Position numbers and translations under genes: made by a program. The notes under the pieces are model-generated. The model saw only the letters and a list, made by a program, of their open reading frames with translations. It did no database searches and was not told where the DNA came from. From assembly GCA_029856435.1 (NCBI GenBank), contig JAHQXB010000055.1, positions 1 to 24,000 of the forward strand: a stretch of 24,000 nucleotides of DNA. The letters run 5' to 3'. The DNA is from Candidatus Jordarchaeia archaeon. Lineage in GTDB: Archaea > Asgardarchaeota > Jordiarchaeia > Jordiarchaeales > Jordiarchaeaceae. Below, in pieces: positions 2,081 through 23,628 of this stretch (the stretch's first letter is position 1; every line of letters begins with the position of its first letter).

Positions 2081-3091
2081 ATGCACGTTTTGAAGCCTGT
2101 TTATCATATTGTACGCCCTTTGCTTTCCCTTATTCCCGTCGGTAGTTTTACAATTGGGATTATTGTGTCTTTGTTTGACCCTTTTACGTGGAGCCTTTAT
2201 AGAGATAGTTCTGTTCTTATGATTTTTATTTTATCAGTTCTCTCCCTTCCTGTCTTTTTATTATCTTATTTGGCTGTATTTCTTTTAGGAATTTCTAGTT
2301 CCAGCTTGAACTCATTAGTGGATGCTAGGGATTGCGATTTAAGAGGGTTTAGAAAGGATTACCAGAATCCGGTTGTTTATTGTGGAGTGCCTCCCTTATA
2401 TATGAAAATTATTATTATTTTTTGCTCCGTCGCCAGCCTTGTAATAGGTTTTTACATTTCACTTATATTCGCAGTTATGATTTTTTTTGGGAATTTGATT
2501 TCTATATCCTACTCGTATTATCCTAGGATTAAGGTACGTCCTCCTTTTGATGTTTTATGGAACGCTATTGGTCTTTTTACTTTACCTTTTATTGCGGGTT
2601 GGGTTGTCTATCACGGTTCACCTGAGGCTTTGGCTCATTCGTATCTTACAAATGTTATCCTGTTTTATTTTTTAGGAGTAAGAAATATTGTTGGTGTACT
2701 AGTTTTTATACTATTGGTTAAAACCTTTTGGTTTCCTCTTTTTGAGCTGTTTGGCGGTACTTTAATTGGTGGCGCCTTTTACATTTTGACTGCTACTTTA
2801 GATTATGAAAGTGATAGTGAGACAGGCAACAAAACTATTAGTATTATTTTGGGTAAACGTTACTCGATTCTGCTCAGTCTTGCATTGTACCTTTTTGGAG
2901 CATTGATTATGTTTGAACATTTGATTTTTGATTTGGGAACAGTGGTTCTCTTTTTTTTAATAGCATTTTTTATGGTGTATCTAGTCATCAAACCTGAAAA
3001 ACTGTATGTGTGGAATTTTCTAAAGCTGACTTTAATGGCAACGCTAATTCTCATTTGTGCGGAAATAATTGTAAGGATTTGCATTTCTTAA
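2081..3091 (+). CDS. UbiA-superfamily prenyltransferase-like polytopic membrane protein
   Basis: 336 aa and very hydrophobic, with multiple predicted TM segments. The second Asp-rich motif DYESDSETGNKTISIILG closely resembles the MenA/UbiA D-x-E-x-D-xxx-G-xx-T-xxxx-LG motif. The first motif, NSLVDARDCD, is only a degenerate N-xxx-D-xxx-D. Confidence 0.6.
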   Translation: MHVLKPVYHIVRPLLSLIPVGSFTIGIIVSLFDPFTWSLYRDSSVLMIFILSVLSLPVFLLSYLAVFLLGISSSSLNSLVDARDCDLRGFRKDYQNPVVYCGVPPLYMKIIIIFCSVASLVIGFYISLIFAVMIFFGNLISISYSYYPRIKVRPPFDVLWNAIGLFTLPFIAGWVVYHGSPEALAHSYLTNVILFYFLGVRNIVGVLVFILLVKTFWFPLFELFGGTLIGGAFYILTATLDYESDSETGNKTISIILGKRYSILLSLALYLFGALIMFEHLIFDLGTVVLFFLIAFFMVYLVIKPEKLYVWNFLKLTLMATLILICAEIIVRICIS

Positions 3092-3509
3092 AACTGAGAA
3101 TCCCTTCTTGTTAAAATGTTAAACCTTGTTTTCGCATATTTGCCCTAATAAGGAAATCTAGCTAAAAAATGTGAGTGGTTATACCAAGCATTGACAACAT
3201 CAAATGAAGAGGTGAGAGTTAAAATTTTCTTCAATATTGCGTAAAACTCAAAGAGTGCGTAGATATAAAATGTTTTTTTAGATTATGGAGGAGGGTGTTT
3301 AAATATTGCTAATCGAAATCTACTAATGAAATTTTACAAAATCGTTGGCGAGAAAGTATCCAAGTTAAGGGTGGTATAAAAGTTGCTATAGATGATGTTA
3401 CTATAGTTGAGAGTTCATAAGTGAAATTTGGGATTTTTTCGAGATTTGAGAAATGGACACAAAATGTGAATAATTATGTAAAGAGATTAAAAATTGGTGT
3501 TTAAAGTTT

Positions 3510-6443
3510 ATGCTTGTTAGCTGGGATGTAATTATGTCTCTGACATTTTCAATGTACGAATTATTATTGGAGTTGATCCTTTTAACGATTATAATATCCT
3601 GTTTTGCTTTTTCCTTATATACTATTAGTAGAGATTCTCTCCATGTTCTTTCTCGTGGAATTTATGCGAAGGGAATCCGCTATAAGTTTATCATATGTCT
3701 TAGAGTTTCAAATATCCCTAAGGAAGATGCAAAGATGCAAAGGCAGGGCACACCGGAAAATTCAGACAATGTTGCTCAATACGTGCATCAGCACTTAACC
3801 TCGATGTGGAAAAATGTTAAGGAAGCAAGTTATGAGATACATGTAAGAGAAGAGGGTGTGGAAATTTACTTCTATGCTCACCATAGTGGATTTAAAGGCG
3901 AGAAATGTTTTAAAGAGGCTTGGAAAAAGATGCACTCTTTAAAAATCAGTCTTGAGACACGTTTTCCAAATATCGAAACAAAAATCCAAGAATTTGAGGA
4001 TCTGAAAAAAAGGTTTGACATTTTTGATTTTACATCTAAAATGAAGATCAAAAAAAACTTTGTAATTTTTAACAGTAATGGGTCAGAAACTTGGGTGAGC
4101 GTCACTCATATTAAAGGAAAAATAGAATGCACCCCCCAAGAAAAGTACTCTCAGATAGATAGCCTTGTTAGAGGTTTAACAAGGTTGGGAATGGACGCCC
4201 ACTTTATTGTACATTTCAAAGCAGTTAAACCCCCAAAAACAAAAAATATTACTTCTATAAATAAGAAGTTGAAGACCCCTAAGGGAGAAGTTCTTATACA
4301 AATAAATGAAGATAAATTGGATGAAAGGGAAAAGGAAATCGGGCATATTGCAGGTTATTGGGACGTTTCCTCGTATGTTGTCATCAAAACTAATACTGAG
4401 AAAGAAGCTGAAATTCGAGCTATTCAAGTCAAAAACATTTTAAATACAGTTTATTCAGGATCTCACTACAGTCCCCATATAAAAACAATGAGCGGAAGAG
4501 AAATAAAAAGAAAATTGAAGCAAATTGTTTTACGCAAATCTGTGGGCAAAACAGAGAAAATGGCAAGTACGCGACTAGCGGCGTTAACACATTTTCCTGA
4601 AAGGCCAGTACCGGGCATTGAGACTTTTGAATGCCCAGAGTTCGAAATACCTCCACAAACAATATTTAACTATTATAAGGGTATACCAATTTCCTACGTA
4701 CTGTACAAAGATCGCGAAATTTTTACCTGTATGCTGGATCCAGAAGATCTAAGATGTGGTCTTGCAGTTTTAGGTACAGTGGGGAGCGGGAAAACATATT
4801 TCGTAATGAACCTCATTGACAAGTTGCTTAGAGAGAAACAGCTACCGATGCTAATATTTGAAAGCAAGGGTGAATTCGCCGGGCTTGCTAAATTGTTGCC
4901 TCCAGAAATTGCGAAAAATATACTCATAATCTGTCCGGGTAGTAAATTTGCACCCTTAAAAATTAATCTATTTGATCCGGGTGATATGGATGCTGAAGAT
5001 TATGCTCAAAGGTTGTATGGTCTAATAGATGAAACACTTCGTTCACTTTTTCGTATAGACAGTGATCTCTCACTGCAGATGTCAAGGGTATTGTGTGAGG
5101 TGTTACCCCAAGTAATAAAAGAAGAGAGATACAGAAACTTTGATGCCTTAGGTAAACTACTTAGTGATTATGCTGAGAGTAAGAGGCAAACTGTGCCTTT
5201 CGTTGATAGCACTATACTTGCTTTAGACGCTCGCTTAGGAGTTTTTCGTCAAGGAATTCTGGGTAGTGTTTTTAATGTGAATAAGAGCAATATTAGCCTT
5301 GACGACCTCCTGAAGAAGGTAATTGTGATAGATTTTAGTTATTTACTATCGCAAGGAGGAACTAAGGAAGATACACAGATTATTATGAATCTCATTATGC
5401 TCCAAGTTTTTCAGGCTGGATTAAGAAGAATAAATGTAGAAGAATTAAAGCACTTAGTTGTAGTGGACGATGCCCGTTTTCTAGTTCCTGAAATATTTAG
5501 ACGCCGCAGTAGTGGAGATACTACCATAGTTGAAGATATGATTACAATTGAACGAGGAAAAGGACAAGGCTTAATTCTGATATGTCAAGATCCTGCAATA
5601 TCAAAAGTGGTCCTTGCTAATTGTAACACTCGTGTCGTTTTTCGAATAGCATTTAAGTCTCTAGAAGAGGAAGAATACATTAGATTGGGGCTAAATATTA
5701 CAGATACACAGAAGAGCCATCTGGTCGCTCAACCTAGGCGGGAAGCAATTATGAAATTAGCCGAATACCCCTATCCCTTCAGGATTAGAACACTAAACTA
5801 TCATTGCCCAAAAATTACCTTCCAAGATATAGAAGAACACAATAGGAAACATCACAAAGAATTATATGTTGATGAAGAAATAGAACAAGAAAAGATCTGT
5901 GAACTTGAGTTAAGTCGAGATGAAAAAAATATTCATGAAATTTTATCTTGGATATTAACCCACGAATATATCACAGTTGACACCGCAAAAGAACTAGTTA
6001 AACTGGACTACTTTAAGACTCGCGAATTGTTAGACGCCCTGCATAAGGGAAATGAACTTTTTAAAACAACATACTTTTCTCCTATAAGTGGAAAACAAAT
6101 ACTCTACCATACAAATGACAATGCTTTTCTAGCATTTATGGGTGATGAATTGAGGAAATTCGCATTAAATAATAAACTCGACGCCCCAGTACAAATATTA
6201 AAAAAATGTGAAAAAAGCAAAATAATTAAAGAAGTCTCCTCGCCTGAATTTAAAGAGGGGGTAATAGTAACTTTTGAAGGAAAAACAGCGACCCAAATCA
6301 AAGAATGGTTGAAGGAGAAGAGCAATTATAAAATAATTAGCTTTACTGAGAAGGGACTCCGAGAATTAAAAACATTTATCGAAAAATTAAAAAATAGAAA
6401 CAATAGGTTCCGTTTTATCGCCATAGAGCGAATAGTTAACTAA
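3510..6443 (+). CDS. Membrane-anchored FtsK/HerA-superfamily P-loop ATPase with C-terminal winged-helix-like region
   Basis: 977-aa ORF. It has an N-terminal hydrophobic helix (LLLELILLTIIISCFAFSLY) and Walker A GTVGSGKT (4773-4796). It also has Walker B HLVVVDDARF and the HerA/VirB4-like stretch RGKGQGLILICQDPAISKVVLANCNTRVVFRI. Residues ~70-400 have no motif I recognise. Confidence 0.75.
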   Translation: MLVSWDVIMSLTFSMYELLLELILLTIIISCFAFSLYTISRDSLHVLSRGIYAKGIRYKFIICLRVSNIPKEDAKMQRQGTPENSDNVAQYVHQHLTSMWKNVKEASYEIHVREEGVEIYFYAHHSGFKGEKCFKEAWKKMHSLKISLETRFPNIETKIQEFEDLKKRFDIFDFTSKMKIKKNFVIFNSNGSETWVSVTHIKGKIECTPQEKYSQIDSLVRGLTRLGMDAHFIVHFKAVKPPKTKNITSINKKLKTPKGEVLIQINEDKLDEREKEIGHIAGYWDVSSYVVIKTNTEKEAEIRAIQVKNILNTVYSGSHYSPHIKTMSGREIKRKLKQIVLRKSVGKTEKMASTRLAALTHFPERPVPGIETFECPEFEIPPQTIFNYYKGIPISYVLYKDREIFTCMLDPEDLRCGLAVLGTVGSGKTYFVMNLIDKLLREKQLPMLIFESKGEFAGLAKLLPPEIAKNILIICPGSKFAPLKINLFDPGDMDAEDYAQRLYGLIDETLRSLFRIDSDLSLQMSRVLCEVLPQVIKEERYRNFDALGKLLSDYAESKRQTVPFVDSTILALDARLGVFRQGILGSVFNVNKSNISLDDLLKKVIVIDFSYLLSQGGTKEDTQIIMNLIMLQVFQAGLRRINVEELKHLVVVDDARFLVPEIFRRRSSGDTTIVEDMITIERGKGQGLILICQDPAISKVVLANCNTRVVFRIAFKSLEEEEYIRLGLNITDTQKSHLVAQPRREAIMKLAEYPYPFRIRTLNYHCPKITFQDIEEHNRKHHKELYVDEEIEQEKICELELSRDEKNIHEILSWILTHEYITVDTAKELVKLDYFKTRELLDALHKGNELFKTTYFSPISGKQILYHTNDNAFLAFMGDELRKFALNNKLDAPVQILKKCEKSKIIKEVSSPEFKEGVIVTFEGKTATQIKEWLKEKSNYKIISFTEKGLRELKTFIEKLKNRNNRFRFIAIERIVN

Positions 6444-6897: not shown

Positions 6898-8127
6898 TTA
6901 ACTGTGTTTATACGCCCTTTTTAAAGCTTCAATTCCTGGTAACTCCTCTTTGGTCAGAAAGCTTATGAATGCTTTACCTGCAGTGCTTATATAGGATACT
7001 TTGCTAGCTAAGCCAAATTTTTCTAGCGCTGCTATTGTATGCCCCCCACCAACGAGGGAGAACGCCTTTGAGTTTGCAACTGCCTCAAGAAGTTTATGTG
7101 TTCCTATTTCAAATGGAGGCTCTTCGTATACTCCCGCTGGACCATTGAAAACAATGGTATTGGCGTCCTTCAATATTTTGGTATATTCCTCTATTGTTTT
7201 GCTGCCAATATCCTTAATTGGTCTATTTAAGGGTAATTTGTCGATGGGGATCTCTAAGCGTTTTCCACCGTCATCAACGGCAACATCTTTTATCATTTCA
7301 ATTATGTTGTTGTGTTCATCTAAAAGTTTTTGAACCTCGGGGATTTTTTCTATCAGTCCTTTGGAAGAAATCATTTCTTTATTTACTTCTCCTATATCAA
7401 TGCCTTCGGCTAGAAGACATAGGTAAGAGATTATACCGATAGGTAAGATTCTGTCTGCGTTTTTGATATCCAAAACTTTTTTCATTATTTGATAACTATC
7501 CTCAGCTTTCATTCCGCCCAAGACATATACTGATGGTCTTTTAGGATTCTCTGTGGCATTGAGAATCGAGTTGACCTCTTGTTCCATGACTCTTCCAGCG
7601 GCAGAGGGTAAGACATATGTAAAACCGACAATAGAGGTATGATTTCTGTGAGCCGCTGAAAAGGCGTCATTAACGTATATGTCTGATACGCGCGAAAGTT
7701 GCTGAACCATAGGTGAATTGATTTGTTCTTTTACAGTCTTCGCACCGGTTTCCTCATCACAGAAGCGTACATTCTCCAGTAACAGTATTTCCCCACTTTT
7801 CATACTTTTTATTTGGTTTATAACTTTTTCACCATAAACTTCATTAATGTATTTCACGGGTCTATTCAAAATTTCGCTAAGCAACTTTCCGTGTTGTTCC
7901 AAGGGTAAGAAGTCATCGTCACCCCTTCGTCCTTGATGCGCCAGAACAACAATCTTTGCACCATTATTCGCCAGCTCTAGCAAGGTTTTTGCATGTGCTG
8001 TAAATCGCCTAGTATCAGTAATTTTTTTTGTCCCAAGATCTATAGGAGAGTTGATGTCAACTCGAACAAGCACCGTCTTGTCTTTAAATTCGAAATCGTC
8101 AAGTGTGTAAAATTTTTTCTCAGCCAC
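6898..8127 (-). CDS. pgk: Phosphoglycerate kinase (archaeal type)
   Basis: 409 aa with a GTG start. The sequence is PGK-like along its full length: LVRVDINSP, AHQGRRGDDDF, NVRF, and GGGHT near the C-terminus. Confidence 0.93.
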   Translation of the reverse strand: MAEKKFYTLDDFEFKDKTVLVRVDINSPIDLGTKKITDTRRFTAHAKTLLELANNGAKIVVLAHQGRRGDDDFLPLEQHGKLLSEILNRPVKYINEVYGEKVINQIKSMKSGEILLLENVRFCDEETGAKTVKEQINSPMVQQLSRVSDIYVNDAFSAAHRNHTSIVGFTYVLPSAAGRVMEQEVNSILNATENPKRPSVYVLGGMKAEDSYQIMKKVLDIKNADRILPIGIISYLCLLAEGIDIGEVNKEMISSKGLIEKIPEVQKLLDEHNNIIEMIKDVAVDDGGKRLEIPIDKLPLNRPIKDIGSKTIEEYTKILKDANTIVFNGPAGVYEEPPFEIGTHKLLEAVANSKAFSLVGGGHTIAALEKFGLASKVSYISTAGKAFISFLTKEELPGIEALKRAYKHS

Positions 8128-8940: not shown

Positions 8941-9996
<1,056 letters not shown>

Positions 9997-11127: not shown

Positions 11128-12295
11128 ATGGCTAAAATAACAGTCTCCTTAATAAAAGCAGACATAGGTTCTATAGCTGGTCATACAACCGTGCATCCAG
11201 ACTGCATAGAAGCTGCCAAAAGCTCGTTAGAAAAAGGACAGAAGGACGGAATAATAATCGATTTTCATGTAACTCACGCAGGCGACGACCTAGAACTAAT
11301 TATGACACACAGAAGGGGTGAAAATAACGAAAAAGTGCACAAGTTGGCATGGGACACCTTTACTAAGGCAACCGAAATTTCGAAAAAATTAAAGCTATAC
11401 GGAGCAGGACAAGATTTACTCAAAGACACATTCAGTGGAAATGTCAAAGGAATGGGCCCTGGAGTAGCAGAACTAGAATTCGATGAACGAGGAAGCGATC
11501 CACTAATAGCTTTTATGGCCGATAAAACTGAGCCGGGAGCATTCAACTTACCCCTCTTCAAAATTTTCGTAGACCCATTCAACACAGCAGGATTAATAAT
11601 TGATCCCTCACTACACCAAGGATTTATCCTCGATGTCTACGATGTTGTGGAAAATAAAAGCGTTCGCTTAAACTGTCCTGAGGAAATGTATGACGCTCTA
11701 GCGTTAATTGGGACAACGGGGAGATATATAATTAGAAAAGTATGGCGAAAAGACGGATTACCATGCGCAGCAGTTTCTACGACTAGGCTCAGCTTAATAG
11801 CAGGTAAATACGTAGGAAAAGACGACCCCTGCGCCTTGGTACGCTCTCAACATGGACTACCCGCCACCGGAGAAGTCTTAGAACCCTTCGCTTTCCCCCA
11901 CCTAGTAGCAGGTTGGATGAGGGGCAGTCACACAGGGCCTCTTATGCCGGTCGGCGTAAAGAATGCTGTTTGCACAAGGTTCGACGGCCCCCCAAGAATT
12001 GTCGCATTAGGTTTCAATGTTACTGACGGTCATCTAGTTGGACCCGTAGACTTGTTTGACGACCCAGCATTTGACTTAGCAAGACAAAAAGCTAATGAGA
12101 TAGCAGAATACATGCGCAGACATGGTCCCTTCATGCCTCACAGGCTAGGACCCGAGGAGATGGAATACACTTGCGATATTCTCTTTTCAATTATTTATAT
12201 AAATACTCTTTGTAATTGAGGTAGCCCTCTCGCAGTAGAATACCCTCCCTGGCGTCCTGAAAAAATTAGCGGATAGATTCGTTAAAGAAGATTAG
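11128..12295 (+). CDS. fbp: Fructose-1,6-bisphosphate aldolase/phosphatase (class V FBPase), interrupted: exon 1 11128..12170, exon 2 12241..12295
   Basis: The ATG lies 4 nt after AGGGGAG (11117-11123). The N-terminus MAKITVSLIKADIGSIAGHTTVHPD and the rest of the sequence match the family closely. After ...EEMEYT the ORF diverges into 15 non-family codons and a stop at 12219. The family C-terminus TLPGVLKKLADRFVKED* is encoded in the +1 frame at 12242-12295. Confidence 0.85.
12171..12240 (+). other. Putative bulge-helix-bulge (BHB) intron within the fbp mRNA, 70 nt (equivalently 12172..12241)
   Basis: - Removing the segment restores the frame and the conserved C-terminus.
- TGCGA 12172-12176 pairs with TCGCA 12230-12234.
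- The 3-nt bulges are ACT 12169-12171 and AAT 12239-12241.
- They flank a central helix, TAC 12166-12168 with GTA 12235-12237.
- The canonical cleavage positions coincide with the frame-restoring junctions. Confidence 0.55.
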
Positions 12296-12759
12296 TCTAA
12301 AACCCTTTTTTTATTTTTTTTAACTATAATTTGAAGTTTTTATTCTTCTTTAAGTGTTAATTATGAGTCGGCTTGCGCTCATTTTTTATCTAGAATTACA
12401 AAGCAAGTATCATTCTCGCTTATATCTTCTTCCTTTTGGCAAGCTACACATTTTGTAAAAGTTTCTTGTATTTACGGATTCACGGTTTCAAGTTTTGATT
12501 TTGGAAAAATATGACTTAGGTTTGTTAAAGTTCTCCAATTTTTTTTAAGCCCTTAACTCTTTTCCTAGATTATGCGGTTTCCTGTGAATTCTTCGCACTA
12601 TCTAAATATTAAGCTTCGCTTTCCCCTTTGTGGTTACAAATGTAGTGCCCAACTACTAGTGCTATTGAGGTACAAAACGAATATTTGGGAGTTACTCAGT
12701 GGCTTGAGAACTATTCTATCCCCTAGCTGCAAGTACATTTTATTTGTTAATTTAATTAC

Positions 12760-12909
12760 TTATGCGGTTATTTCGTCAGTTCTTATGTTTGCTATGGTGT
12801 GGGCTAGTGTGTATCTGTATTTTCTTACGTCTTCTCCACATTTTTCTGTTAGGTTATCGTAGAGGTCTTTTAACTGGTTGAGGATGATTTTTATGGTTGT
12901 TTTGTCCAT
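12760..12909 (-). CDS. Possible 49-aa small helical protein (MDKTTIKIILNQLKDLYDNLTEKCGEDVRKYRYTLAHTIANIRTDEITA)
   Basis: This ORF is below the ORF-track size cutoff. It has an ATG at 12909 and an A-rich coding strand. A TATA-like TATATTTAAA (reverse complement of 12954-12963) lies about 45-55 nt upstream. It is divergent from the AAA+ gene. Confidence 0.3.
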   Translation of the reverse strand: MDKTTIKIILNQLKDLYDNLTEKCGEDVRKYRYTLAHTIANIRTDEITA

Positions 12910-18803: not shown

Positions 18804-18873
18804 TTCTGTTCACATAGAGAACTTCTTTGGTACTAAAAACATTTTTTCAATATAAATATATGAGGGTTTCCAG

Positions 18874-19917
18874 TTGCAGGAGGAAATACCAAAAATAACT
18901 GTAATGAAAGCGGAACTCCTAGAAAAAGGAACGATCTTTGTAAAGGAGGTTAAAGAGCTTCCCTTTCACATAGATCGCTCTACCGCAGGTCCAAGCACCG
19001 GCCAAAATTCTATCTTTCTAAGGTTAGGCCAAGAGAGATTAGTGCGTCTTACTCTCACACAGAAACAGTCAGAAACACCCTACACCTACGACGCTAAACG
19101 TAAAGTCATAAAGAAGGATGAGGAAGAATGGCTTCCTGCGAGACAGGTAGAAAGCCTCCTTCACTGTCCAGAACAAGCATTCCTCAATTTAGATTCAAAC
19201 TGCAAATACCACTGCAAATTCTGTGCAACCCCTTTAATACAATCTCACATCAACCATAGAACCCTCCAGCCCCAAGTTGTGACCAGAATCGTGAAACGGG
19301 TAGCAAATAAGAGTTTAACGGCGGTTGCACTCACTACAGGAGTTTTTTCCACACCAATCGATAGTGTGAAACACATGTGCCAGGTGGTAGAGGCCCTCCG
19401 CCGAGAATTTGGGGATAGACTACCCATAGGAGTCGAACCCTATGTCGAAGAAGAAAAACACATAGATATGCTATATGACGCTGGAGCAGACGAAATAAAA
19501 ATAAACGTTGAGAGCTTTGATCCCCAAATCTACTCTAAAGTTTGTAGCGAATTCAACTATCAAAACAACCTGAAAATGGTCAGATACGCTGCAAAAGTCT
19601 TCGGAGAAAACCGCGTCTGTTCAAACATCATAATAGGACTTGGAGAAAAAGAAGAAACAATAGACCAAGGGGCAGAAACATTAGCACACTGGGGAGTAAT
19701 CGCATCCCTAAGACCCCTAAACTTAAATCCCCTAATAATGCAACAATTGCAACAGACGCTAAACAATAAGGCACAACGACCCACTGCCCAAAGACTAATC
19801 AAACATGCAACAAAACACAAACAAATCCTAAACGAAAAAGGTCTAGACGTAAACAAATTCAAAACTATGTGCCTCAAATGTACCGGCTGCGACATAGTTC
19901 CCCAAAAAGACCTCTAA
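18874..19917 (+). CDS. Radical SAM protein, LipS1/LipS2-type lipoyl synthase subunit candidate
   Basis: 347 aa with a TTG start (an alternative ATG lies 10 codons in). It has the CxxxCxxC motif CKYHCKFC at 19201-19224 and a C-terminal CLKCTGC motif. It is paired divergently with the other radical SAM gene. Confidence 0.7.
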   Translation: MQEEIPKITVMKAELLEKGTIFVKEVKELPFHIDRSTAGPSTGQNSIFLRLGQERLVRLTLTQKQSETPYTYDAKRKVIKKDEEEWLPARQVESLLHCPEQAFLNLDSNCKYHCKFCATPLIQSHINHRTLQPQVVTRIVKRVANKSLTAVALTTGVFSTPIDSVKHMCQVVEALRREFGDRLPIGVEPYVEEEKHIDMLYDAGADEIKINVESFDPQIYSKVCSEFNYQNNLKMVRYAAKVFGENRVCSNIIIGLGEKEETIDQGAETLAHWGVIASLRPLNLNPLIMQQLQQTLNNKAQRPTAQRLIKHATKHKQILNEKGLDVNKFKTMCLKCTGCDIVPQKDL

Positions 19918-21366: not shown

Positions 21367-23628
21367 CTACACTTTTATTTCTTTGCTTTTAGATAGAGCC
21401 ATGGGTATGATTTGTTCTTGTGTGAATTTTATGTATCCGTCTTGCTCTGATACTATTGCGTATGCTTCCTCTTTGGTGGTTACTGGCGCGAAAATGGTTT
21501 CATCTCTGTCTCTTACCACACACCATAGGTCTTTATTGGGGTAGTGTAGGAATTTTACATTTCCTTGTCTTTGGAAGTGTTTTATTACTGACTCGAAAAC
21601 TTTGAGATCGATGTTTGAGATGATTGTGGCTTTGAAGTTTCTAATGTTTAGTAGTTCTTCAAGGATTTCGGGGATGAGTTCTGGGGAAATTATGGTTATG
21701 TTTTTCTTGGTTTTTCTAATTATAGATTTGGTGTGGGCTATGATTGCCTTTTCGCCTATTAGGGGCCAAGTCTTTATGTCCTTGTCGAATATGCTGTATG
21801 ATGTTTCCCAAATTTTTTTTAGGATTTCTTCCTTCTTTTCTATATGAGTAGTGATGCTTGAGAATTTTTCGATTAGATCATGGAAGTTTTTATCGAGAAC
21901 ATCTCTGGAGTCGGTATAGTTTTTGGATATGGCGTAGGCAATTTTTTCTTCAAAGGGACCCAGCTCTTGTATGTGTGCTCCTACTTTTTGGTTTATGGTT
22001 CTGTCTAGGTTGTTGTAAAGTTCTTCAGTCATTTTATCATATTCGAAGGCGTTGGTTTGTAGCGTTTGAGCTATCTTTCTCTGGAGGTGAATTACGCTGT
22101 ACTCTAGGAGTTTTATCCTGTTTTTGATGTTATTTTTGTACGTTGAGAATAGTTCGCTTGATCCGTTTATGAATGTGGTTAGGGCTTCGCTAAAATTTTT
22201 AAAAGCGTTTTCTATGTAGTTCCCAATATCCTTTCCAAGTTGGGTACATAAGTTTTCACAGTCCTCATCGTTGTTTTTAATGACTTCTGTAACAGCGTTG
22301 GAAATTTTGGATTCTATGAGGGAGCTTATAGGTGTTATCTTCTCCCTGAATTTGTTCTGCACCTTTTTAACCTCCTCCCTCAACAGGGTGGCTTTTTCAT
22401 CCACAAAGGTGGATAGACTCTTGGTTATCTGGTCTGTAATCCCCTGCGCGGTAACTATCTGTTCTGAAACCACGCTTTGATAATCGGCGCTCAAACCCTT
22501 AGCAGTCTCGTAAATTTTCTGTGTTTTCTCATTCAAATCTTCTAGAAATGCGTCGCCTTTCAAAACTACGTTGGTGAAAGCCTTTCTACGCGATGATAGA
22601 ATAGAAGTGGAACCAGCTAAATCTTGAGAAATACTCTCCAATCCACTAATAATGCTCTTCACCCGAGGCTCAAACGAGTTTAAAGTATCTAGGTAATGGT
22701 TGAGCAAGCCAGTCATAGCCTCTAAATACTTTGCCTTAAAGGACTCCACCTTCTCCCCCACTATCTCCAAAATAATTTTAAGTATCTCAAACACATCGGA
22801 TTCCAAATGCTCAATGAAACGCTTCAAAACGTTCAAATTCTCATCCACAGTAGTCCTAATCTTACTATCCAATTCCACACTATTCTTCTCATGTTTCGAC
22901 CGGTGTTCACCCAAAGTGGTAATGAAATGTAGCTTAATTATGTCTAGACGCTCACGAATCTCCTTGGTATATGCAGAAAAGGTTTTGCTGACCAGACTCT
23001 CTAAAGACACCATATCCTGCTCTATGCCTGAAACAAACTCCGAGGTAAGATCTGAAAGACTGAAGCTCTTCTTTTCCTCAAAATGCTCTACATCACTAAA
23101 GTCAACAAAACTCGTGGAAAGCAAAGAGCGTATTGCTTCCTCCACAGAAACACTCAAATCCCTAAAAGCATCTGCACTTCTCTCAAAGTTAGAACTCATA
23201 AGTTTAGTAAATTCCTCCACAAAAGACCGAAAAGTTTCCACACGGCTGCTAGTCAAACGGGAAAGCTCCTCCACCGATAAAAGCTTACTATCTTCCAACT
23301 TTTTGCTAAGCTCTTCAAACCTAGCTCTTGCAACCTTCTGTAACTCCTCTAATAAGTGACTCAAATCCTCATAAACACTCAAAAACCCGGCCAAAAAAGG
23401 ATTCAAAGGCACAAAGCCATCCACTTCTCCCGGCACTCGGCGCACAAAACGTGATTCCACTAAACGATCCAAGATATCTTTACATACATCTACAGGTAGT
23501 CCGGTCAGAGTAGAAACATCACCCAAAGCCAAACGCCCCGCACCCAAAACAGCTAGGTAAGCTTTAATCTCGTCATCTGTCAAGTCAAAATTTTTCATAA
23601 AATGCAAAATAGCCTCATTGACACCCAT
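21367..23628 (-). CDS. TrmB-family protein with a giant (~500 aa) all-helical insertion between the wHTH and the TrmB C-terminal domain
   Basis: 753 aa. The N-terminal TrmB-type wHTH reads LTDDEIKAYLAVLGAGRLALGDVSTLTGLPVDVCKDILDRLVESRFVRRV. The C-terminal 150 aa (TWPLIGEKAIIAHTKSIIRKTKKNITIISPE...VVRDRDETIFAP) follow the TrmB effector-domain pattern. The middle is low in Pro and Gly and rich in E, K, L and S. Confidence 0.75.
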   Translation of the reverse strand: MGVNEAILHFMKNFDLTDDEIKAYLAVLGAGRLALGDVSTLTGLPVDVCKDILDRLVESRFVRRVPGEVDGFVPLNPFLAGFLSVYEDLSHLLEELQKVARARFEELSKKLEDSKLLSVEELSRLTSSRVETFRSFVEEFTKLMSSNFERSADAFRDLSVSVEEAIRSLLSTSFVDFSDVEHFEEKKSFSLSDLTSEFVSGIEQDMVSLESLVSKTFSAYTKEIRERLDIIKLHFITTLGEHRSKHEKNSVELDSKIRTTVDENLNVLKRFIEHLESDVFEILKIILEIVGEKVESFKAKYLEAMTGLLNHYLDTLNSFEPRVKSIISGLESISQDLAGSTSILSSRRKAFTNVVLKGDAFLEDLNEKTQKIYETAKGLSADYQSVVSEQIVTAQGITDQITKSLSTFVDEKATLLREEVKKVQNKFREKITPISSLIESKISNAVTEVIKNNDEDCENLCTQLGKDIGNYIENAFKNFSEALTTFINGSSELFSTYKNNIKNRIKLLEYSVIHLQRKIAQTLQTNAFEYDKMTEELYNNLDRTINQKVGAHIQELGPFEEKIAYAISKNYTDSRDVLDKNFHDLIEKFSSITTHIEKKEEILKKIWETSYSIFDKDIKTWPLIGEKAIIAHTKSIIRKTKKNITIISPELIPEILEELLNIRNFKATIISNIDLKVFESVIKHFQRQGNVKFLHYPNKDLWCVVRDRDETIFAPVTTKEEAYAIVSEQDGYIKFTQEQIIPMALSKSKEIKV

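Follow-up and report, generated by a model that had tools for sequence, protein, structure and literature searches.

The bulge-helix-bulge (BHB) motif consists of two 3-nt bulges parted by a 4-bp helix (PMC6379350), and it is cleaved between bulge nucleotides 2 and 3 (PMC2738675). A 2023 review recorded EndA-dependent processing of archaeal mRNAs for two genes, cbf5 and HVO_1309, and anticipated further cases (PMC10485636); for HVO_1309 it described the spliced form as the major RNA-seq product (PMC10485636). Here we analyzed a 24,000-nt stretch of contig JAHQXB010000055.1 from Candidatus Jordarchaeia archaeon (hereafter the window), in which the coding sequence of fbp is split by the 70-nt element 12171-12240. 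Sequence comparison makes it very probable that this element is a pre-mRNA intron, cut by EndA and rejoined by RtcB. An earlier sequence-only reading of the window had proposed such an intron and regarded cbf5 as essentially the sole precedent, a view that needs correction since EndA also acts on the HVO_1309 mRNA (PMC10485636). In the literature that we searched, neither fbp nor any Asgard protein-coding gene is reported to have a BHB intron.

Split fbp Gene and Its Two Possible Products

The fbp open reading frame (ORF) in the ORF list covers 11128-12219 of the forward strand, encodes 363 amino acids and closes with the TGA at 12217-12219. Its family match runs to ...GPEEMEYT, after which CDILFSIIYINTLCN and the stop follow, and the C-terminus of the unspliced protein is ...EMEYTCDILFSIIYINTLCN. 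The segment 12242-12295, in a frame other than that of the 11128 ORF, is translated as TLPGVLKKLADRFVKED and a stop. Joining 12170 to 12241, with 12171-12240 deleted, gives a 365-aa protein ending in ...EMEYTTLPGVLKKLADRFVKED. This product matches Pfam FBPase_3 at profile positions 1-360 of 361 (E=6.5e-183), and its residues 1-364 align with the solved Sulfolobus tokodaii protein ST0318 (3r1m), including ...EMEYTTLPLILEKLKDRFKKE. Among 129 intronless homologues the family C-terminus EYTTLPxVLxKLKxRF hardly varies, with 100% conservation of the TT that follows EMEY. The sequence-only reading had placed the ORF, the displaced C-terminus and the junctions at coordinates that were all correct. Its proposal that the deletion restores a family member is borne out by the end-to-end alignments with FBPase_3 and ST0318, and the C-terminal match that it had proposed holds in the alignment of homologues. 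Our literature searches found nothing on the role of Tyr348 or the C-terminal segment of the enzyme.

An oligo-T tract begins 11 nt past the exon-2 stop, and T-runs occur at the equivalent place 3' of exon 2 in L005, L082, and L162-L165. Judged from its sequence, the tract is likely a transcription terminator. Its location 3' of exon 2 is consistent with one transcript covering both exons.

Conservation of the Insert across Lineages

The insertion occurs at the identical site in 12 independent assemblies from about seven diverged lineages. These 12 loci derive from different studies and samples; L162-L167 were found through a 90%-identity protein cluster, and L002-L005 and L082 through genome and metagenome scans, which place the window among Asgard archaea under the labels Candidatus Jordarchaeia or Freyarchaeota. 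L002-L004, L082, and L162-L167 come from Guaymas Basin and hot-spring samples, and CP147778.1 from SRVP wetland samples. The intron of the window type has 70 nt, that of L082 has 81 nt, and those of L005 and L162-L167 have 73 nt; removing the intron restores ...EMEYTTLPGVLKKL.DRF.KE(D/E) with the following stop in 12/12 loci. In L005 the exons would be joined from 3043 to 3117. Identity among the intron-bearing genes goes down to ~80% at the nucleotide level and ~87% at the amino acid level. Loci L002-L004 are 98-99% identical to the window, L005 (Freyarchaeota SRVP19, chromosome record CP147778.1) is 87% identical, and L082 shows 84% identity in the best tblastn segment and ~90% over the full spliced protein. 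The other archaeal homologues retrieved, about 150, are all uninterrupted. The uninterrupted relatives, for which the earlier reading had asked, include the Freyarchaeota proteins P0002 and P0003 (75-77% identity) and an Odinarchaeia protein. The matches of L159, L006, and L083 stop short of the C-terminus, yet these genes proved uninterrupted on inspection. The intron-bearing fbp genes make one tight cluster, for which a single gain is the simplest explanation.

The intron-bearing L082 and the intronless L083 come from the same metagenome (Ga0190363), on different contigs, with ~75% identity between the genes. The C-terminus of L083 is the same as in L006, which is labelled Thermoproteota, and in P0003, whose cluster is labelled Freyarchaeota by NCBI. 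The taxonomic labels of L006 and P0003 therefore disagree despite the shared C-terminal sequence.

The distribution of the insert bears on whether it arose through an error of assembly or sequencing, or by recent insertion of a mobile element such as a small non-autonomous transposon. The short terminal inverted repeats TGCGA/TCGCA and a GAATAC direct repeat (12163-68 and 12238-43) would suit a mobile element, but the insert has diverged together with its host gene, is single-copy within the window, and leaves the protein unrestored when the sequence between the GAATAC repeats is deleted. The site is moreover shared by all 12 assemblies including CP147778.1, and the authors of the complete Freyarchaeia genome report long-read validation (PMC11291895). 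The misassembly check that the sequence-only reading had called for is thus answered: an assembly artefact is excluded because the insert recurs in independent assemblies, the Freyarchaeia chromosome record among them, and the probability left to this explanation as a whole is practically negligible. One copy of the GAATAC repeat forms the end of exon 1 (12163-12168) and the other crosses the 3' splice site (12238-12243); this second copy reads GAACAC in L005, L166, and L167. The repeat may be a coincidence or a trace of the intron's origin.

Coding Selection in Exon 2

Among 11 sequences, the variable sites of exon 2 comprise 15/18 third positions, 4/17 first positions, and 3/17 second positions (Fisher p=1.9e-5). 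Because variation concentrates at third positions, the alignment indicates that exon 2 is translated in the spliced frame. In the read-through tail, 10, 5, and 13 of 16, 16, and 17 positions vary, with no clear codon periodicity.

These patterns weigh on the possibility that no splicing takes place, in which case the 363-aa read-through protein would be a functional truncated enzyme or the product of a decaying gene, and exon 2 a relic. The public annotations of the clade that were examined all give 363-364 aa, the spliced sequence is on record nowhere in the collections searched, and the frame-0 TGA of the read-through is conserved in all lineages. Against this, exon 2 is strongly third-position periodic and keeps the family motif in about seven lineages, whereas the tail lacks such periodicity and differs widely among lineages. 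The C-terminal motif that would be lost is near-invariant in the family, and the supplementary table of the Freyarchaeia paper lists one copy of fbp (K01622) in that complete genome. The oligo-T tract also lies 3' of exon 2, not of the read-through stop. We judge the absence of splicing very improbable.

Programmed frameshifting was tried as another route to the displaced C-terminus. Frame 0 closes at 12217-19, 5' of the last stop of the exon-2 frame (TAG, 12236-38), and the two frames have no open overlap. Insert lengths of 70 and 73 nt leave a remainder of 1 on division by three, whereas 81 nt leaves 0, and no single offset serves both. Frameshifting is ruled out because the frames lack an open overlap and the insert lengths fall into two classes modulo three.

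Bulge-Helix-Bulge at the Junctions

The junctions are compatible with a BHB in which an intron helix (h') and an outer exon-exon helix (h) flank the bulges on both sides, with a central helix (H) between the bulges (Table 1). The BHB geometry is present in a relaxed form and departs from the strict canonical one. The 5' site is a clean bulge, and the 3' site is relaxed by the A.G and AxA mismatches. The pairs of the central helix are A.G, U-A, A-U, and C-G (12165-68 with 12238-35). Only the third bulge nucleotide varies in the core, as U/A at the 5' site and U/C at the 3' site, and this free variation is as expected of unpaired bases. In h', UGCG/CGCA is invariant and the helix measures 4-8 bp across loci; its fifth pair is AU in 4 loci (window type), UA in 2 (L082 and L164), and unpaired in 6. 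All 10 loci scored for the BHB (10/10) have 3/4 central pairs, at least 4 contiguous h' pairs, and 2/3 outer pairs, except L163 with 1/3 outer pairs.

The junction register is the only BHB register common to all lineages. Where 12241 is U, two weaker registers occur, which give a wrong frame or lose one Thr. The cuts predicted by the cleavage rule, between 12170 and 12171 and between 12240 and 12241, coincide exactly with the frame-restoring junctions and give ...EYTTLPGV..., and the cleavage positions are the exon borders. In these respects the fold described from sequence alone stands: the base pairs listed there (h', central helix, bulges, and GG 12162-63 with CC 12243-44) are present, the helices called short and relaxed do form a relaxed BHB with mismatches beside the 3' splice site, and the claimed agreement between rule and reading frame is exact.

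Aligning the 12 sequences shows invariant nucleotides at the junctions and divergence in the intron interior. Variable columns in the seven introns of 73 nt number 28 in the first 50 and 3 in the last 23. A local hairpin, GAG(G)...CCUC, is conserved in the 3' third of the intron (12214-12240; L005 3093-3116), and the frame-0 AAY-TGA stop located there is kept by all lineages. From the alignment, the conservation of this part seems to exceed the apparent need of the BHB strands.

This conservation leads to the question of whether EndA cuts the BHB mainly for regulation, through mRNA decay or conditional splicing, with a role for both isoforms. Yeast TSEN cleaves mRNAs and leads them to decay, and EndA cleaves the Haloferax HVO_1309 mRNA (PMC10485636). 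Additional functions could lie behind the conservation of the in-frame TGA and of the 3' part of the intron. However, coding selection on exon 2 needs a ligated product at least sometimes, the sequence indicates no condition-sensing element, and there is no Rfam match. We therefore give a mainly regulatory role low credence.

Other RNA classes were also considered for the element. A self-splicing group I/II intron or a curated RNA family was rejected, as the element is only 70-81 nt long and Rfam gave no match at the gathering threshold in the window and none at E<=1 in the intron region. A C/D-box small RNA was likewise rejected, as inspection by eye found a CUGA-like box in some lineages but no C box. 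The sole Rfam match at E<=1 in the window is the plant microRNA MIR394 at 18813-18905 on the reverse strand (24 bits versus a gathering threshold of 60, E=0.67), almost certainly a chance match.

Exon-Exon Helix and Selection on RNA Structure

The consensus fold of the 12 sequences by RNAalifold shows a 15-bp outer helix, a symmetric 8x8 internal loop, and the 4-bp UGCG/CGCA helix. The internal loop is exactly the BHB core region, and RNAalifold leaves the core itself unpaired. The GG/CC outer pairing of the sequence-only reading is thus present within a helix whose extent had been put too short. In a fixed register, 97.8% of the outer-helix cells are paired. The pair G12159-C12247 covaries (GC in 6, GU in 3, and AU in 3 sequences) and joins the third positions of a Glu and a Leu codon, and three further outer-helix pairs switch between GC and GU (or GU and AU). 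The other wobble changes of exon 2 fall in unpaired columns, with the exception of L163, where ACC to ACA costs one pair.

All intron-bearing loci form 14-15 of the 15 outer-helix pairs, and the 129 intronless homologues form a median of 9 (range 6-14). The intronless median, from 129 loci among L007-L161, compares with ~5.6 of 15 pairs expected at random, so the coding sequence of the family was already partly self-complementary before the intron. Such pre-existing partial self-complementarity may have predisposed the site to intron gain.

Constraint on exon 1 also points to the splice site. In a three-lineage comparison, the longest invariant run of the 1,098-nt coding sequence is a 25-nt run ending exactly at the 5' splice site, and among 11 sequences no 8-codon stretch of the gene varies less than that in codons 340-348, just 5' of that site. 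Synonymous change was found in 2/7 degenerate, amino-acid-conserved codons of 340-347 versus 81% gene-wide (binomial p=0.003), and comparable synonymous constraint elsewhere is seen only in the start-codon region.

An exon-exon helix might instead serve translational bypassing of the T4 gene 60 type, in which ribosomes would take off at the Thr codon 12169-71, skip 70-81 nt, and land at ACC 12242-44. Thr codons (ACN) stand on both sides of the gap, the helix could juxtapose the take-off and landing sites, and bypassing would account for the coding selection on exon 2 as well as splicing does. But the bypassing product, ...EYT-LPGV, would have one Thr, and TT is invariant in the 129 homologues. 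The wobble bases of take-off and landing codons differ in most loci (ACU/ACC or ACA/ACC; in L005 ACA then ACC), the codon after take-off is UGC and not a stop, and the invariant nucleotides exactly fit the BHB geometry and the EndA cleavage rule. We also know of no bypassing of such kind in archaea. Taken together, bypassing is a highly improbable account of the locus.

Table 1. Positions of the split fbp gene and of the putative splicing signals in the window (cuts and intron assignment are predictions).
Feature	Position	Strand	Basis and remarks
fbp exon 1	11128-12170	+	Codons 1-347 and AC of Thr348; ORF list, Pfam, 3r1m alignment
Putative BHB-type intron, 70 nt	12171-12240	+	Protein alignment and 12 homologous loci
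fbp exon 2	12241-12295	+	Third nt of Thr348, TLPGVLKKLADRFVKED, TAG stop 12293-12295; translation, codon-position test, family consensus
Stop of unspliced frame (TGA)	12217-12219	+	Direct sequence reading
Outer helix h, 5' strand (exon 1)	12146-12163	+	Pairs with 12243-12259; RNAalifold, 12 sequences, 15 pairs
Outer helix h, 3' strand (exon 2)	12243-12259	+	RNAalifold; wobble changes mostly pairing-neutral
Central helix H, exon-1 strand AUAC	12165-12168	+	Pairs with GUAG 12235-12238: 3 Watson-Crick pairs and A.G; invariant, 12 loci
5' splice-site bulge ACU	12169-12171	+	Predicted cut between 12170 and 12171
Intron helix h', 5' strand UGCGA	12172-12176	+	Pairs with UCGCA 12230-12234
3' strands of h' and central helix H	12230-12234 (h'), 12235-12238 (H)	+	Sequence, 12-locus alignment
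3' splice-site bulge AAU	12239-12241	+	Predicted cut between 12240 and 12241; flanked by mismatches A12165.G12238 and A12164xA12242
Oligo-T tract T7 A T8	12306-12321	+	Starts 11 nt past exon-2 stop; sequence

Chance Expectation and Evidence against Splicing

Several results weigh against splicing and temper our confidence in it. The A.G and AxA mismatches make the BHB relaxed at the 3' site, and about 1,700 such relaxed BHB-like motifs occur per strand of the window. Since relaxed motifs are so common, the motif alone is not informative; only its coincidence with the frame-restoring junction is, and a motif of equal quality at one fixed junction pair has a chance frequency of 5.4e-4 in this window. 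The folding energies of the whole region were not better than those of shuffled sequences (z = -0.88, -1.68, and +0.34), and minimum-energy folding favours a slightly different register within the BHB core. The formal measures of covariation are weak, since the lineages are related and the majority of pairs show no variation at all: true covariation amounts to 1-2 pairs in about seven related lineages. Of 500 shuffles, all but 4 fell below the observed covariation score and percentage of cells that pair, a level that related sequences can reach without structure, and neither compensatory pairs nor pair types were more numerous than in the shuffles.

Records of the product itself also speak against splicing. 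Exact look-up of 10 spliced proteins in a 15-billion-sequence collection returned none. When the last 71 residues of the spliced protein served as the query of a profile search, no match exceeded ~82% identity to them, whereas spliced proteins from the intron-bearing clade would be expected at ~83-100%. In addition, the table of the Freyarchaeia paper appears to show zero fbp transcripts for that genome.

Proposed Splicing Pathway and Host Enzymes

We infer cleavage, ligation and the enzymes responsible from the features above and from what is known of the host lineage. In the pre-mRNA, the 18-nt segment 12146-12163 of exon 1 would pair with exon 2, and the intron ends would pair with each other, UGCGA with UCGCA. 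The central helix AUAC/GUAG would form between these helices with the two 3-nt bulges beside it. EndA, in Asgard archaea of the broad-specificity (alpha-beta)2 type, would then cut at the two predicted positions, an RtcB-type ligase would join the exons, and the intron would probably be circularised. The spliced mRNA would encode the complete 365-aa enzyme. The spliced product would contain the peptide ...EMEYTTLPGVLK, and the unspliced one the C-terminus given above.

Asgard EndA is an (alpha-beta)2 enzyme with an L1 loop that confers cleavage of relaxed BHBs (PMC5829648), and the sister lineage Atabeyarchaeia has two K01170 (EndA-type) genes and RtcB. Neither an EndA nor an RtcB gene lies within the window. 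In three complete genomes, two of Atabeyarchaeia and one of Freyarchaeia, 92-95% of the tRNA genes have introns, often at non-canonical positions (PMC11291895), and the same paper mentions no mRNA intron (PMC11291895). Together these genomes have 228 tRNA introns. ARAGORN found no tRNA in the window, so there is no in-window tRNA intron for comparison. Likewise, no other split gene was found in the window, where Pfam coverage was complete wherever a family matched (16 further ORFs).

If fbp is spliced, it would be the first case of EndA/RtcB mRNA splicing in Asgard archaea, the closest known relatives of eukaryotes, and the first in a central-metabolism enzyme, in a lineage already notable for its extreme tRNA-intron load (PMC11291895). 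The long conserved exon-exon helix would offer a clean substrate for probing the substrate range of Asgard EndA. A speculative and rather unlikely extension is that endonuclease-type introns have spread into several protein-coding genes of Freyarchaeia/Jordarchaeia, with splicing possibly gating enzymes such as the fbp product. If that were true, this Asgard clade would be a natural model of protein-catalysed mRNA splicing near the eukaryotes.

Public Annotation and Genomic Neighborhood

The public products of the clade are annotated as ordinary 363-364-aa enzymes. The protein cluster P0001 has 27 members, 15 of them listed (e.g., WXG40146.1, MBS7251885.1, and MEX2707094.1), and WXG40146.1 belongs to the complete genome of Ca. 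Freyarchaeum deiterrae. The P0001 sequences that were read (14/14, from the 15 listed of 27) all carry a wrong 15-16-residue tail that is translated intron, and the same 14 proteins are without a near-invariant 17-residue motif and without the conserved TLPGVLKKL.DRF. Split genes of this sort deserve attention in gene calling and metabolic reconstruction for intron-rich archaea.

By Pfam, a phosphoglycerate kinase gene (6898-8127, reverse strand), a GAPDH gene (8992-9996, forward strand), and fbp (11128-12295, forward strand) form a small gluconeogenesis/glycolysis neighborhood. GAPDH is upstream of fbp in L163, L164, and L166 as well. The 770-nt gap downstream of fbp contains a 49-aa ORF without a Pfam match (12760-12909, reverse strand), and a 49-54-aa gene occurs on the same strand and at the same position in L001, L162, L163, L164, and L166; by its recurrence the ORF may encode a conserved small protein. 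Farther away are two large ORFs that are poorly characterised. The forward-strand ORF 3510-6443 (977 aa) matches only the HerA/DUF87 central domain. The reverse-strand ORF 21367-23628 (753 aa) has a TrmB-type helix-turn-helix at its N-terminus; the long region after it, possibly coiled-coil, gives only a weak sub-threshold Apolipoprotein match.

Comparison with Known Systems

In T4 gene 60, as in fbp, a coding gap of tens of nucleotides has to be skipped, but in T4 gene 60 the take-off and landing codons match and take-off is followed by a stop, features that the fbp locus does not show. HAC1/XBP1 splicing in eukaryotes resembles the proposed fbp splicing as a non-spliceosomal, protein-catalysed excision of a short intron that alters the C-terminal frame. 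RtcB is the ligase in metazoan splicing of this type (PMC8718801). The likeness is one of analogy only, since HAC1/XBP1 splicing uses the endonuclease Ire1 and paired stem-loops as the recognition element.

The tRNA introns of Freyarchaeia and Atabeyarchaeia share the host lineage and presumably the enzymes with the fbp intron, and they are located in tRNAs (PMC11291895). HVO_1309 of Haloferax volcanii is, like fbp, an archaeal mRNA with a BHB, and its cleavage by EndA is known (PMC10485636). It differs in belonging to a euryarchaeon with an alpha'2 enzyme and in being an unrelated gene.

In mechanism the fbp element resembles the cbf5 intron of Crenarchaeota (Aeropyrum, Sulfolobales, and Desulfurococcales), which is also a short relaxed BHB intron inside a protein gene (PMC2738675, PMC10485636). 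Both have exon borders between bulge nucleotides 2 and 3, a hetero-oligomeric (alpha-beta)2 host EndA, and a patchy, one-clade distribution with intronless relatives, and both are routinely mis-annotated by gene callers. However, cbf5 encodes an RNA-modification enzyme of Thermoproteota, whereas fbp encodes a central gluconeogenic enzyme of Asgard archaea. The fbp intron further differs in lying near the C-terminus in a Thr codon, in its 15-bp exon-exon closing helix, and in that splicing is inferred here. The cbf5 family is defined by an intron in the catalytic-Asp codon of cbf5, and the host gene here belongs to FBPase_3. The fbp intron would work like the cbf5 intron but stands outside that family.

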